64,000 nucleotides of DNA from NCBI GenBank assembly GCA_964504715.1, contig CAZDEP010000001.1, positions 97,842 to 161,841 of the forward strand. The letters run 5' to 3'. The position numbers and the translations under genes were made by a program. This DNA is from an uncultured Candidatus Saccharibacteria bacterium. GTDB lineage: Bacteria > Patescibacteriota > Doudnabacteria > UBA920. Below the pieces are notes generated by a model. It had not been told where the DNA came from. It searched no databases and saw nothing but the letters and a program-made list of their open reading frames with translations. Of the stretch, positions 16,659 through 43,922 are shown piece after piece. The stretch's first letter is position 1. Each line of letters starts with the position of its first letter.

Positions 16659-17390
16659 TTAGACACCCTTTAAGTACTTGAGCCTTAAAGTTTGGGGCAG
16701 GCGTTCTATGGAATACCTAAGCATTGTCCTGGGCATTTGCTTGTGGTGGCGGTTGAGAAATTCTATTAGCAGTGCTTGGTTGCAGCGTTTGCCCGCTTCC
16801 CTAAGCATCCAGCCCGTGGCTTTGTGGATAAGGTCGTGCTTGTCATCCATTAAAATTTTTGAAATCTGCAAGGCGTCTTTTGCGTCGCCATAGTAAATAA
16901 AATCAAAAGTGGCCAAAATTGCAATCCGCCTTTCCCAAAGGTTTTTGGATTTAGCCAGCCGATATAAAATTGCTTTATTTTTTTTGCGCAAGTAAGCGCC
17001 CACAATTTTTGGCGCGCTTAAATCCACCAAATCCCAGTTGTTTATGTATTTGGTGTGCTTAAGATAGAAATCAAAAATTGCCTTTTGCTCTGGCGTACTA
17101 GCTTGTCCGTCGTAGTCTTGACGAAGACGGGTACTTTGAAACTTGAAAATAAGGATAAAAAGTGCGATCAGCCGCTCTTCGTGGATTTTGCTTTTGAGTA
17201 AAGTTTTTAAATCTTTTAATATTAAATCTTTAAATTGCCTGGCCACTTGCCTTTGCGCGGGCACCACAATACCTAAAAATTTGTCGCCCTCGCCATACTC
17301 CCCTTTTCCCGTCTTAAAAAACCTTTGCAGAAGTTCTGCCTTTTTGGGGTCGGCCAGTTTTCTTATTTCGTCTCTGAGTTGATATAACAT
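16659..17390 (-). CDS. DNA alkylation repair protein (AlkC/AlkD HEAT-like repeat family)
   Basis: N-terminal LADPKKAELLQRFFKTGKGEYGEGDKFLGIVVP is characteristic of PF08713. Confidence 0.75.
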   Translation of the reverse strand: MLYQLRDEIRKLADPKKAELLQRFFKTGKGEYGEGDKFLGIVVPAQRQVARQFKDLILKDLKTLLKSKIHEERLIALFILIFKFQSTRLRQDYDGQASTPEQKAIFDFYLKHTKYINNWDLVDLSAPKIVGAYLRKKNKAILYRLAKSKNLWERRIAILATFDFIYYGDAKDALQISKILMDDKHDLIHKATGWMLREAGKRCNQALLIEFLNRHHKQMPRTMLRYSIERLPQTLRLKYLKGV

Positions 17391-17414
17391 GTCTGAATTA
17401 TAGCAAAAAAAGAA

Positions 17415-18046
17415 GAAGCGGGCGCGTCCTCGTCAGCCGGCATTTAAGCCTTTAGACGATTAAAGCGCCCGCGTAAAGCTTTGGGTCATGCGAGCGACTT
17501 GCCACAGTATTGGCAAGCCGAAAGGAGTTCTTGTCCCCCGTTGCCGTTAGCAACAGGGAGAACTCGGCGATCCAGGTCGGTCCTGTACCACCGACCAGCC
17601 CCCTCCTTGAGGATACGCACGTCGCGCGGTTTTGCCGCGCAAGCGTGCTCCTCAAGGAGGCGGTTTTCGAGCCTCCTTGATTCTTGCATACGGCAAATAA
17701 TACACAAAAATTTTCATTAAATCAAGCCGCCGTAGCATCGTCGCTTGAAAAAAAATCAAGATAAGCGTAGAATTTGGGTTATGCAACAAGAGGAAACGGT
17801 CGGGCCCGGCCCGACCGCCACCCATTCTCAAACCCGCGGGGGCGGGTTTGGGGCGGACGATCCGTACGAAACGGATCGCCGTTTTTCTTCCGCGCCTTCA
17901 AGCGCGGAAGAAACCCCCGCCCCCGCACCGCGGCCTGGCCATGCGCCAGGCTGCGAAGAATAACCCCTTGCCCTCCGCGCGCAAAATCCATCTACACAAA
18001 AAAAGCCTTCCCTTTCATGCGCGCGGAGGCTTTTTTTATTTTAACT
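17415..18046 (+). ncRNA. GC-rich (about 65% GC) hairpin-dense non-coding island; candidate structured ncRNA(s) of unknown class
   Basis: At least nine perfect 7-12 bp stem-loops, including gcgggcgc/gcgcccgc, cttgcca/tggcaag, cggtcgggc/gcccgaccg, aaacccgc/gcgggttt, gatccgt/acggatc and cttccgcgc/gcgcggaag. Mutually exclusive pairings between 17601-17612, 17648-17660 and 17670-17678. Ends in a strong intrinsic terminator. No credible ORF and not listed in the track. Confidence 0.45.
17972..18042 (+). terminator. Strong rho-independent terminator (11-12 bp GC stem CCTCCGCGCGC/GCGCGCGGAGG, then UUUUUUUAUUUU)
   Basis: Seen directly. No U-run on the opposite strand. Confidence 0.7.
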
Positions 18047-18190
18047 GAATTAATATATTGTCTGTCATTCCGGACTTGATCCGGAATCTAGATCCTGAAA
18101 CCCCAGTAGTAGAACCTTTGGTTCACTACGGGGCAAGCGAGTTCAGGATGACAAAACGGATAGGTTGTTTTGTGCTCGTCGCAATGACAA

Positions 18191-19723
18191 TCAAACTAAT
18201 AAGCTTTCCCCGGTCATTGACGCGGGTTTTTTTTTGTGCATTAGGCTTAAAATGGTGGGAGCGATGTTGGCCAAAGAACCATTAAAAGATTTAAGATTTA
18301 AAGATTTAAAATTGGAAACCAATATAAACGGAACAAGATTGGTTGTGTGGGCGGTGTGTTTTTCGCCCGTAACTGAATCAACATTCTGTTCCGCATTGCC
18401 GTGGTCCGCGGTCACTATTGCAACCCCTTTTTTAGACAGCACAGCCTCGCAAACCCGTTTAAGTTCCCTGTCCACGGTTTCCACGGCGGTAATTATTGCG
18501 CTTTTGTTTGCCGTATGGCCCACCATATCGGCATTGGCAAAATTTACCACCAGAAAATCGTCGCCGGCGCTTATTCTCTCTATGGCTTTGTCCGCAATTT
18601 CCCGCGCGCGCATTTCGGGCGCCAAGTCGTGCGTGGCCACATCGCGCCGGCTGTCAATTAAAAAATGTTGTTCCGCCACATGCGGGGTTTGCCTGCCGCC
18701 GTTGAAAAAGAAAGTCACGTGCCCGTACTTTTCCGTTTCCGCAATGTGCGACTGCTTTAAGCCGGCCCGGCTAATTTCCGCCGCCAAAGTTGTATCCAAC
18801 TTTTGCGGCGGGAAGGCAACCACCGCGTCTATGTCGGGATGGTATTCGGTCATGGTTACAAAAAACAAATTTTGTTTTTTTGCGCGCTCCACAATTTTTA
18901 GCGAGAGCTGGCGCGGCCGGTCGGTGCGGAAATTAAAGAAAAAAATACCATCGTTATCCTCGACCGTGTACGCTTTGCCGCTATCATCCAAAAAAACCAG
19001 CGGTTCCAGGTACTCGTCCATAGCCCCTTCTTGGTAAAGCGCGCGCAGGGCCTCGGAGGGCTTAAGGCCTTTGAAAGTTTTGCCTTCGCCTTCAAAAATT
19101 GCCTTTTCCGCTTTTTCCGTCCGGTGCCAGTTTTTGTCGCGATCCATGGCAAAATAGCGGCCGGTGGCCGTGGCAATAAAGCCTATTCCTAAATCTTCCA
19201 CCACTTTCTCCAGCTCGCAGAGGTACTTATGGTTTTCCTTGGGAGGCGCGTCGCGCCCGTCGGTAAAGGCGTGAATAATTATTTTGCTTATGCCGGACTG
19301 TTTGGCCGCTTTTAAAAATCCGTGCAAATGTTCCTGGTGGCTATGCACCCCAATGGGGCTGACCATGCCTAAAATATGCAGCGCGGAGTTGTATTTTTTG
19401 ACATGCTCAAACAGCTTAACAAAAGCCGGATTGGACTTAAACTCGTCATTGTTTAAAGCTTTGGATATGCGGACAAGTTCGGTGTCTATGGTTCTGCCCG
19501 CCCCCATTGTCATGTGGCCGATTTCGCTGTTGCCAATGGTGCCCTTGGGCAGGCCCACGGCTTCTTCGGACGCGTCCAAAACAGCATGGGGGTATTTCTC
19601 CATGGCATAATCAAAAAATGGGGTATGAGCCTCGGCAATGGCATTGTGTTCGCTTTCCTGCCGAAGGCCCCAGCCGTCTAAAATAATAAGGCAAACTGGG
19701 CGTATACCATCATACTTTATCAT
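18191..19723 (-). CDS. gpmI: 2,3-bisphosphoglycerate-independent phosphoglycerate mutase
   Basis: N-terminal LIILDGWG, metal-binding ADHGN motif, 510 aa. Confidence 0.9.
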   Translation of the reverse strand: MIKYDGIRPVCLIILDGWGLRQESEHNAIAEAHTPFFDYAMEKYPHAVLDASEEAVGLPKGTIGNSEIGHMTMGAGRTIDTELVRISKALNNDEFKSNPAFVKLFEHVKKYNSALHILGMVSPIGVHSHQEHLHGFLKAAKQSGISKIIIHAFTDGRDAPPKENHKYLCELEKVVEDLGIGFIATATGRYFAMDRDKNWHRTEKAEKAIFEGEGKTFKGLKPSEALRALYQEGAMDEYLEPLVFLDDSGKAYTVEDNDGIFFFNFRTDRPRQLSLKIVERAKKQNLFFVTMTEYHPDIDAVVAFPPQKLDTTLAAEISRAGLKQSHIAETEKYGHVTFFFNGGRQTPHVAEQHFLIDSRRDVATHDLAPEMRAREIADKAIERISAGDDFLVVNFANADMVGHTANKSAIITAVETVDRELKRVCEAVLSKKGVAIVTADHGNAEQNVDSVTGEKHTAHTTNLVPFILVSNFKSLNLKSFNGSLANIAPTILSLMHKKKPASMTGESLLV

Positions 19724-22452: not shown

Positions 22453-22526
22453 GGGGGCGTCGTATAATGGTAGTACAGCGGTCTCCAAAACCGCTTGCGT
22501 GGGTTCGATTCCTACCGCCCCTGCCA
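22453..22526 (+). tRNA. tRNA-Trp (anticodon CCA)
   Basis: gggggcg acceptor, anticodon loop ctccaaa, T-arm gggttcgattcctac, encoded CCA. Followed by a terminator hairpin at 22527-22566. Confidence 0.85.
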
Positions 22527-22656
22527 AAAAGAATGTGTGCCTTTGCGGTGCACATTCTTTTTGGTTACGCAGGATAGGAATCGAAGGGCGCGAGTGCAAT
22601 CCGAGCAGGTGCAGGATTGCATTGTGTGTAGCGCCCCGGCTTTTTGTCGGAGCAAA

Positions 22657-22679
22657 AAGGATTCCTACCGCCCTTGCCA
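22657..22679 (+). repeat. Direct repeat of the tRNA-Trp 3' end (att-like scar or pseudo-tRNA fragment)
   Basis: aggattcctaccgcccttgccat versus tRNA 3' end ttcgattcctaccgcccctgcca, about 130 bp apart. Confidence 0.5.
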
Positions 22680-22799
22680 TAAAAAACCGGTTTGATATGG
22701 ACGGGTTTTTTTGTTATCATTTATTAGAATTATTAACTTAGTCATTTGGTGCAGATGCGGGAGAGATTGCTTCGGCTGCACTCGCAATGACAAAAAAAG

Positions 22800-41150: not shown

Positions 41151-41246
41151 TCTTAAGTTTTTTCGCTAAGGGGAAGAGGGGTTATTGCAGGTGGTTAGTG
41201 GTGTTATCTTGCTGACTTCAAACCTTCTTCCCCGGGGGTGTGGATA

Positions 41247-41274
41247 TTGACAAATTTCCAAAATCTGCTATAAT
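41247..41274 (+). promoter_or_regulatory. Consensus sigma-70 promoter (TTGACA, 16 nt, TATAAT) followed by a roughly 120-nt structured 5' UTR of the RRM protein gene
   Basis: ttgacaaatttccaaaatctgctataat. UTR has a 10-bp enclosing stem aagagctca...tgagctctt. Confidence 0.6.
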
Positions 41275-41398
41275 ATAGCCAGTCATCTTAGTTTAAGTGT
41301 CCTCAAGCTTTTTTTAAGAGCTCAAAAGACAGTCTTAAATTGTTTAATAAATTTTAGTAAGAGTGTAAGGTGAGCTCTTAGAGAAAGCCTTTGAAAAA

Positions 41399-41710
41399 AT
41401 GGCGAAGAAACTCTTTATCGGCAGTCTGCCTTGGGCGACTACCGGTGACGACCTTAAGCAGCTTTTTTCCCAACACGGCACCGTTACTTCGGCTACCGTG
41501 ATAATGGATAAAATGACTGGCAGGTCTCGCGGTTTTGGTTTCGTTGAATTTGAAAACGATGCCGAAGCTGACGCCGCAGTTGCAGCCTTAAATGGTTACA
41601 CTTTGAGCGGCAGGCAAATTACCGTTAACGAAGCCCGTCCTATGGAAGACAGGCCTCCCCGCAGAAATTTCGGCGGCGGTAACGGCGGCGGTTGGAACAA
41701 CAACCGTTAA
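41399..41710 (+). CDS. Glycine-rich RNA-binding protein (single RRM)
   Basis: RNP-2 LFIGSL, RNP-1 RGFGFVEF, C-terminal GGGNGGGWNNNR tail. Confidence 0.9.
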   Translation: MAKKLFIGSLPWATTGDDLKQLFSQHGTVTSATVIMDKMTGRSRGFGFVEFENDAEADAAVAALNGYTLSGRQITVNEARPMEDRPPRRNFGGGNGGGWNNNR

Positions 41711-43731: not shown

Positions 43732-43922
43732 ATTTTAAGTTAAATCGGCTTTGGAATATTAACAGCTTGCAATGTATTGGCTATATTTTAAAACATTTTT
43801 GGAAATTTGTCGAGATTCTGTTATAATTTTTGTGTCAACCTGAACTTATTTCAGGATCCAGGAAATAAGAAATCAAAAACAAAAAAATGGATTCCGTATC
43901 AAGTACGGAATGACAGACAAGC

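Follow-up and report, generated by a model that had tools for sequence, protein, structure and literature searches.

Two putative divergent small transcripts packed with hairpins beside an AlkD-type glycosylase gene in Doudnabacteria

The GC-rich island described here, which lies in a 64-kb window (the whole stretch of 64,000 nt that was analysed), most likely represents not one RNA but two short, hairpin-packed transcripts that run outward from a shared core. On balance, we think it probable that these form a lineage-restricted, bidirectional pair of structured small transcripts, of which the folded form is under selection and which are probably also translated. The island adjoins a minus-strand gene for an AlkD-type DNA glycosylase (16659-17390; PF08713) on one side and the minus-strand gpmI gene (18191-19723; PF01676/PF06415) on the other, the domain matches confirming the identities assigned to both neighbours in a preliminary description of this DNA. 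That description had proposed a single plus-strand non-coding RNA of about 630 nt at 17415-18046, with riboswitch-like switching and a strong terminator. Upon an inverted-repeat search, all stem-loops that it listed were recovered, including a mutually exclusive pairing of 17599-17613, 17649-17663 and 17671-17680, and a 12-bp GC stem (17972-17983/18018-18029) followed by T7. It was also right in depicting the locus as an unclassified, strongly structured and terminated sequence without a known family, whereas the proposed single unit proved to be split, at about 17690-17780, by an AT-rich promoter core.

The GC content of 17415-18046 amounted to 56%, and not to the 65% that had been claimed; values of 66-68% were reached in local 120-nt windows only. 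The structured halves have GC contents of 58% and 60.5%, and the core between them consists of 80 nt at 35% GC. After regression on GC, the island was the strongest folding outlier of the 64-kb window. The left half (17398-17692) gave folding z-scores of -9.45 (minus strand) and -7.09 (plus strand), while the right half (17780-18044) showed the opposite preference (plus strand, -9.96; minus strand, -6.68); 0 of 200 shuffles was as extreme in either half. Furthermore, AAGGAGG/CCTCCTT pairings recur and compete with each other within the island, and this theme is conserved.

The comparisons that follow involve four species, from which alone the island is known. Those gpmI relatives that bear a name belong to Candidatus Doudnabacteria, which places the window in a genome of the candidate phyla radiation. 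The exact AlkD and gpmI proteins of the window occur only on contigs of identical sequence. Nothing was gained from L001, L002, L083 and L088-L095, which are same-species contigs without sequence differences. A syntenic contig of a second species, L087 (ENA ERZ27268712), carries the island and encodes gpmI and AlkD with 76% and 78% amino-acid identity, respectively; seven further contigs are of the same species as L087 and identical. Two more contigs, L096 (GCA_964505125.1) and L097, carry only the AlkD-adjacent part of the island because these contigs are short. Accordingly, the whole island was recovered in two species, and its AlkD-proximal module, which we refer to as Block C, in four, so that covariation statistics are weak. 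The four species are about equidistant, with an AlkD amino-acid identity of about 80% and an AlkD third-codon-position identity of 68-75%. For the flanking genes, pS ranged from 0.49 to 0.61 and third-position identity from 56% to 75%. Blocks of the island that are 92-100% identical across species add up to about 290 nt, and synonymous divergence within these conserved blocks was about 5%, as compared to 49-61% in the flanking genes. Since the synonymous sites of the blocks are far more conserved than those of the neighbours, constraint would act at the nucleotide level. The blocks thus appear either to be constrained at every codon position or to have been exchanged recently between lineages, and recent recombination could account for part of their high identity, besides purifying selection.

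The AT-rich core of about 90 bp (17690-17780), which is 85% identical to that of L087, bears two promoter-like sites placed back to back. The plus-strand site, TTGAAA-17-TAGAAT (17745..17773), has 10/12 matches, and 7 nt separate its -10 box from the ATG at 17781; the minus-strand site, TTGATT-17-TATTAT (17697..17725), has its -10 box 7 nt before an ATG at 17689. As indicative of sigma-70-type promoters we took -35 and -10 hexamers at 16-18 nt spacing that are more conserved than the spacer. Indeed, the hexamers of both sites were identical to those of L087 at 24/24 positions, while the spacers had changed at about 6 positions (plus site, 17 nt) and 2 positions (minus site). Both core sites are therefore regarded as predicted sigma-70-type promoters. 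The distance of 7 nt between -10 box and ATG in the two units compares with 6-7 nt in AlkD and gpmI. Judged from these motifs, transcription of both units would start at or next to the ATG.

The right unit is predicted from inverted repeats and folding to be a structured transcript of ~262 nt (17781..18042, plus strand). It contains helix P1 (17797-17817), a long-range helix P2 (17836-17846/17916-17926; a local hairpin at 17829-17850 is the alternative to it) that encloses two variable hairpins (17858-17878 and 17884-17913), helix P3 (17929-17955), a small helix (17956-17969) and the 12-bp terminator stem (17972-17983/18018-18029), which is followed by U7 at 18031-18037. With a GC stem and a U-tract on the transcribed strand, this terminator has the hallmarks of an intrinsic (Rho-independent) one; a simple terminator scanner missed both island terminators because their loops are longer than 8 nt. 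The earlier claim that it would act on the plus strand only could not be maintained, as an A7 run in the loop permits an alternative stem AAAAAAAGCCT/AGGCTTTTTTT, which reads as a weak gpmI terminator on the minus strand. Identity to L087 was 94% for the terminator and 3′ region, and 40% for the inner hairpins (17851-17913).

In a consensus fold of the right unit and its L087 counterpart, 65/65 pairs were kept, 6 of which had changed on both sides, and none was broken. When the pairing partners were slid by 1-3 columns as a control, only 0-1 compensated pairs remained and pairing fell to about 50%. In a shuffle control, 10/500 shuffles reached the observed value of compensated pairs, a count that cannot drop much lower because just two sequences were available. 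The 12 substitutions that distinguish the conserved blocks of the window from those of L087 leave every stem intact: 4 of them make up two compensated pairs, 17936/17948 and 17957/17968, and the others fall in loops, linkers or past the U-tract. In place of the two hairpins of the P2 junction, L087 has hairpins whose sequence differs. In addition, P3 and the helix that joins the 5′ end to the 3′ end contain conserved G-U pairs, which speak for the plus strand. Together, these comparisons lend modest support (n=2 sequences) to the view that the right unit is a conserved structured RNA. The right-half helices were kept with compensatory changes; Block C of the left unit showed no covariation among its four sequences.

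The left unit would run from 17689 to about 17405 on the minus strand, and it ends in a hairpin and a U-tract before the AlkD promoter. Its first 21 nt (AUGCAAGAAUCAAGGAGGCUC; 17669..17689, minus strand) form a conserved 5′ segment that is 95% identical to L087 and, according to the predicted fold, able to pair with the U/C-rich tail of Block C. The lone L087 substitution in this segment coincides with a 2-nt bulge of the predicted 5′-3′ helix, and in both units a purine-rich 5′ end can pair with a pyrimidine-rich terminator tail. Block C, the 3′ module (17405..17472, minus strand; inverted repeat and fold), has an outer stem GCGGGCGC/GCGCCCGC (17472-17465/17425-17418) that encloses a conserved inner stem-loop, and this stem is directly followed on the minus strand by UUCUUCUUUUUUU (17417-17405). 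Consisting of an 8-bp GC stem (17472-17418) and then UUCUUCUUUUUUU, Block C classifies as a minus-strand intrinsic terminator, the hairpin of which sits directly against the AlkD -10 box. Its 68 nt (17395-17462 in the window-L087 comparison) were 100% identical in L087 and L096, and 92% identical in L097, where the changes are confined to loops. A covariance model of Block C identified no other copy in 603 kb.

Between its conserved ends, the left unit has a variable, hairpin-dense body (17473..17668, minus strand), which includes the long hairpin 17599-17663, with an alternative partner at 17671-17680. Since this body is only 28% identical to that of L087, the two are not homologous. The L087 body is itself strongly structured (z = -9.4), as is the partial body of L096 (z = -4.1). 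Between L087 and L096, the bodies were 57% identical, which is below the 75% AlkD third-position identity of these species, and one hairpin at the same position in both differs by two compensated pairs that alter the encoded amino acids.

With both units described, the single plus-strand structured or riboswitch-like RNA of about 630 nt at 17415-18046 retains hardly any probability. It would account for the hairpin chain, which is unbroken save for the AT-rich core, and for the strong plus-strand terminator at 18042 of a sequence that belongs to no Rfam class. However, a promoter scan of the island revealed no plus-strand promoter-like site before 17745, neither upstream of 17415 nor near 17480-17520, where -35 and -10 elements had been suspected, and the promoter core that divides the halves is conserved. 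Moreover, the hairpin 17418-17472 has a U-tract solely on the minus strand and Block C terminates in that direction only, the predicted fold of the left half is more stable on the minus than on the plus strand (-151.5 versus -137.9 kcal/mol), and the left body is not homologous between orthologs. The preliminary description had also offered a two-part locus as a fallback, with breaks near 17745 and 17895, of which the former comes close to what we found.

Both units contain an open reading frame that starts at the 5′-proximal ATG. It is possible, albeit doubtful, that the island simply holds two orphan leaderless genes for small proteins of 60 and 67 codons, the hairpins being secondary and reflecting mRNA stability, codon or GC bias, or the regulation of translation. 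Both ORFs begin, like ordinary genes here, at an ATG 7 nt past a -10 box. The right ORF (MQQEETVGP...PGCEE; 60 codons, 17781..17963, plus strand) is kept in L087 as a 55-codon ortholog with a 15-nt in-frame length difference, its N-terminal and C-terminal parts being 96% and 92% identical, respectively. In the MQQEE frame, 6/7 substitutions of the conserved parts are synonymous, as compared to 1-5/7 in the other five frames. Both this synonymous bias and the frame-preserving difference in length indicate that the right unit may code for protein. The left ORF (MQESRRL...; 67 codons, 17486..17689, minus strand) ends in a TGA 13 nt before the Block C stem, and in three species a left ORF opens at the 5′ ATG and is closed by a TGA that precedes Block C by 5-13 nt. 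The left ORFs of L087 and L096 could be aligned without gaps, with 46% amino-acid identity.

Several observations argue against coding as the sole explanation. The low synonymous divergence in the conserved blocks, set against that of the flanking genes, points to constraint on the nucleotide sequence, and the untranslated terminator region is as conserved (94%) as the coding blocks. The left ORFs of L087 and L096 showed a pN of 0.39 and a pS of 0.58 (pN/pS about 0.67), with no specificity for the ORF frame, and the compensatory changes in their shared hairpin alter amino acids. The first 7 codons of the 67-codon ORF are common to the 96-codon ORF of L087, but no further residues are shared, and 4/6 reading frames are open in the GC-rich DNA of the island. 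The encoded peptides are rich in Pro, Gly, Ala and Arg and without homologs or family: the island ORFs gave nothing significant in Pfam, PHROGs or NCBIfam, and the 60-residue ORF matched just itself among 5.8 billion and 1.84 billion proteins. An AlphaFold2 model of the 67-residue ORF was of low confidence (pLDDT 56) and uninformative. A receiver-domain protein was considered for the 96-residue ORF of L087 and rejected, as Pfam gave no match.

The rapid turnover of the variable hairpins raises another question, namely whether mutation or selfish DNA produced the island as a by-product, its GC-rich palindromes having arisen by template switching or from palindromic mobile elements that built up in a tolerant gap between genes and serve no function themselves. 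We consider this improbable. Such an origin would fit the near-perfect stems and the quick replacement of hairpins (28-57% identity, versus 75% AlkD third-position identity for L087/L096), as well as the genuine MITE-like repeat next door at 18063-18153. It would also fit the distribution among relatives: both the island and synteny with AlkD are absent from L084, L086, L098 and L099, the gpmI of which is 72-76% identical, and L100, the closest gpmI relative, of which only 117 nt downstream are available, bears in the same place a GC-rich hairpin stretch that is unrelated to the island. On the other hand, about 290 nt of blocks have remained 92-100% identical though synonymous sites are near saturation, and the promoter hexamers are conserved while their spacers vary. 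Moreover, blastn, nhmmer and a covariance model revealed no further copies of the island hairpins, be it in the window or in loci totalling about 1 Mb, on which ground a multi-copy palindromic element (REP, MITE or RPE) was rejected as the identity of the island itself. REP/BIME clusters, Rickettsia palindromic elements and yeast mitochondrial GC clusters are multi-copy families of GC-rich palindromes; the island resembles them as hairpin-forming, GC-rich intergenic DNA in a lower-GC genome that can lie in frame within ORFs and turns over fast. Unlike these families, it is without other copies in the window or related loci, and large parts of it are conserved orthologously together with promoter and terminator signals.

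The position of Block C immediately upstream of AlkD suggests yet another role, in which the left unit would be a translated leader or attenuator of AlkD and a ribosome near Block C would decide between termination and read-through. Like leader-peptide attenuators of the trp and pyrBI type, the locus has a small ORF just before a terminator hairpin upstream of a gene, with mutually exclusive pairings; the stop codon lies 5-13 nt before the terminator stem, the AAGGAGG and CCTCCTT pairings compete, and Block C is invariant. Nevertheless, we regard this role as quite improbable. AlkD owns an extended -10 box (TGCTATAAT; 17397..17405, minus strand, read from the sequence) 6 nt before its ATG at 17390, and this box is invariant across 4/4 species, which suggests that the AlkD start is of the leaderless type with a conserved promoter of its own, unlike the genes behind trp- and pyrBI-type leaders. 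The distance from stop codon to stem varies, and at the 13 nt seen in the window a terminating ribosome would miss the stem. Also unlike in such attenuators, the ORF is long (67-96 codons) and hypervariable, and it contains no run of regulatory codons. Finally, no known attenuator or riboswitch model matches the island, Rfam leader models reaching no more than 15-19 bits where 55 are required, and doing so on the terminator at 18000 alone. The riboswitch-like A:B/B:C switching of the preliminary description fared no better: the alternative pairing at 17599-17680 exists, but it sits in the left interior, which is non-homologous to L087, and the specific switching logic is therefore not conserved.

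The pair of structured small transcripts that we favour would work as follows. The two sigma-70-type promoters, placed back to back in the core, would each start transcription at or next to an ATG, giving rise to two short GC-rich RNAs that go outward and fold into chains of near-perfect hairpins. In the right RNA, the scaffold formed by P1, the junction-closing P2, P3 and the terminator would be conserved, while the sequence of the junction hairpins could vary freely provided that their hairpin form is retained. In the left RNA, 21 invariant nt at the 5′ end and, at the 3′ end, an invariant 68-nt hairpin with U-tract would enclose a body that is wholly different in each species but always hairpin-dense. 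Selection would then maintain the folded RNAs themselves, possibly as stable small RNAs with both ends protected, and since AUG would be their first codon, these RNAs probably give rise to orphan peptides as well. Block C may serve in addition as a terminator and insulator directly before the AlkD promoter. As the hairpins are symmetric, selection at the DNA level may contribute as well.

A more far-reaching version of this model, to which we attach a rather small probability, holds that the island is a new RNA gene pair of candidate-phyla-radiation (CPR) bacteria, consisting of leaderless dual-use transcripts in which invariant ends bracket a hairpin cassette. The sequence of the cassette would be under diversifying selection or very fast turnover, exceeding that of synonymous sites, yet the cassette would stay folded and translatable. 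The AAGGAGG/CCUCCUU stems, which look like Shine-Dalgarno and anti-Shine-Dalgarno sequences in a genome that hardly uses Shine-Dalgarno sites, might act on ribosomes or on the 3′ tail of 16S rRNA.

With respect to known families, a scan of the whole window with Rfam 15 at gathering score passed only 4 tRNAs and no island family. In a permissive scan of 17300-18300, the best hits scored 24.6 bits against a threshold of 70 and 23.9 against 40, with E >= 0.09. The preliminary description had named tmRNA, RNase P, SRP, 6S, OLE, GOLLD, ROOL, raiA and HEARO as families to check and had argued against the first three of them; none of them reaches its gathering score, and ARAGORN finds no tmRNA in the window. 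The island is like these large ornate and housekeeping RNAs in being GC-rich, multi-helix and intergenic, but unlike them it comprises two units, each about 270 nt long, in opposite orientation. Blastn of the island DNA gave no plasmid or phage match, and a scan of viral contigs no match. Furthermore, a search of genome contigs for AlkD yielded 80 loci at <=63% identity without an island homolog (blastn, nhmmer), Block C is absent from L101, an AlkD relative at a greater distance (72%), and scans of JGI metagenomes returned nothing with a small-ORF alignment or the invariant 31-nt Block C pattern. Three other identities were considered and discarded: a hammerhead ribozyme, suggested by CUGACGAG in Block C, as the GAAA element and stem III are missing from the core and none of the ribozymes in Rfam gave a match; a replication origin, as there is no skew switch and no DnaA box (TTATCCACA) was seen on reading the island; and a retron, omega-RNA or IS-end RNA, as no reverse transcriptase, TnpB or transposase is encoded nearby.

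The locus is best viewed as an unclassified addition to the broad group of small bacterial transcripts that are structured or have dual functions. SgrS/SgrT, RNAIII/delta-hemolysin and SR1/SR1P are dual-function small RNAs of bacteria. Like these, each unit is short, has its own predicted transcription and corresponds to a terminator-ended structured RNA with a small ORF, and constraint is seen on helices and reading frame alike. In contrast to them, the island forms a divergent pair limited to a few Doudnabacteria species, its start would be leaderless, it has no sequence or Rfam relationship to them, and no target or seed region was identified. The clear promoter and terminator signals, the conservation far above that of the neighbours and the hairpin-for-hairpin replacement make the locus a concrete candidate for an RNA that has a regulatory or structural role and is specific to this lineage. 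Its layout, in which invariant ends flank a replaceable hairpin body, is unusual. CPR bacteria have tiny genomes and cannot be grown alone, and to our knowledge almost nothing is known about their small RNAs and small ORFs. The locus has so far been found in a handful of species and has no bearing on a long-standing open question, but it could be used for studying leaderless expression and hairpin turnover in these bacteria.

The wider setting of the island was inspected as well. The ATG of gpmI is preceded at 7 nt by a -10-like box, and such a box is found 4-8 nt upstream of the start in 12/47 genes of the window, while a Shine-Dalgarno motif precedes 4/47. Lastly, the MITE-like repeat that adjoins the island has a second copy at 43833-43915.

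A cluster of AAGGAGG / CCTCCTT stems, which resemble Shine-Dalgarno and anti-Shine-Dalgarno sequences, was found at 17602-17678 in the minus unit, the proposed structured small transcript on the minus strand in the left part of the GC-rich island. Such stems were also clustered at 4816-5090 in L087 (ENA ERZ27268712), a syntenic relative carrying the island. The 64-kb window has six AAGGAGG sites in all, three of which fell inside 80 nt of the minus unit, and the unrelated minus-unit body of L087 contained AAGGAGGC three times and GCCTCCTT twice. In both minus units, the AAGGAGG segments outnumbered the CCTCCTT segments by one.

When the 47 window genes of at least 150 aa were inspected for GGAG, GAGG or AGGA at -16 to -5, a Shine-Dalgarno motif was present in only four, indicating a Shine-Dalgarno-poor genome. 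Many window genes displayed a TATAAT-like box 4-8 nt upstream of the start codon, and this sequence pattern suggests that leaderless mRNAs may be widespread in the genome. At 41240-41710, a gene for a small RRM-type RNA-binding protein (MAKKLFIGSLPW...) is preceded by a near-consensus promoter (ttgaca-17-tataat) and a leader of ∼110 nt, an unusual arrangement here given that most of this genome's genes appear leaderless.

A MITE-like element of 83-91 nt is present in two copies, one beside the island (18063-18153) and one at 43833-43915. Its terminal inverted repeats read TGTCAT(T/C)C.G.AC, and ATTCCGGACTTGATCCGGAAT forms a hairpin in its interior. Its folding gave z = -5.6, and its small hairpin showed compensated changes in the second copy. 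The element was not present in the orthologous island of L087. An end resembling that of the element, tgtcatcctgaac, was located after gpmI in L086, a relative lacking the island. In the closest gpmI relative, L100 (JGI 3300025323; 80% identity), gpmI is immediately followed by a different GC-rich, hairpin-bearing sequence (2132-2248; 117 nt, up to the contig end), which hints at turnover of hairpin-rich DNA at this position within the clade.

The segment at 22527-22680, downstream of tRNA-Trp (22453-22526), contains a hairpin resembling a terminator as well as a structured, GC-rich stretch. This stretch terminates in ggattcctaccgcccttgcca, a near-copy of the tRNA-Trp 3′ end (19/21 matches), which looks like either a tRNA-like remnant or the target duplication that a small insertion within the tRNA gene would leave.

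Beyond the four related species (the window species, L087, L096 and L097), the nearest homologs of AlkD (16659-17390) were 52-63% identical (loci L003-L082) and scattered over Patescibacteria, DPANN archaea, Bacteroidota, Gammaproteobacteria and Bdellovibrio, a distribution suggesting that the gene may frequently be transferred horizontally.
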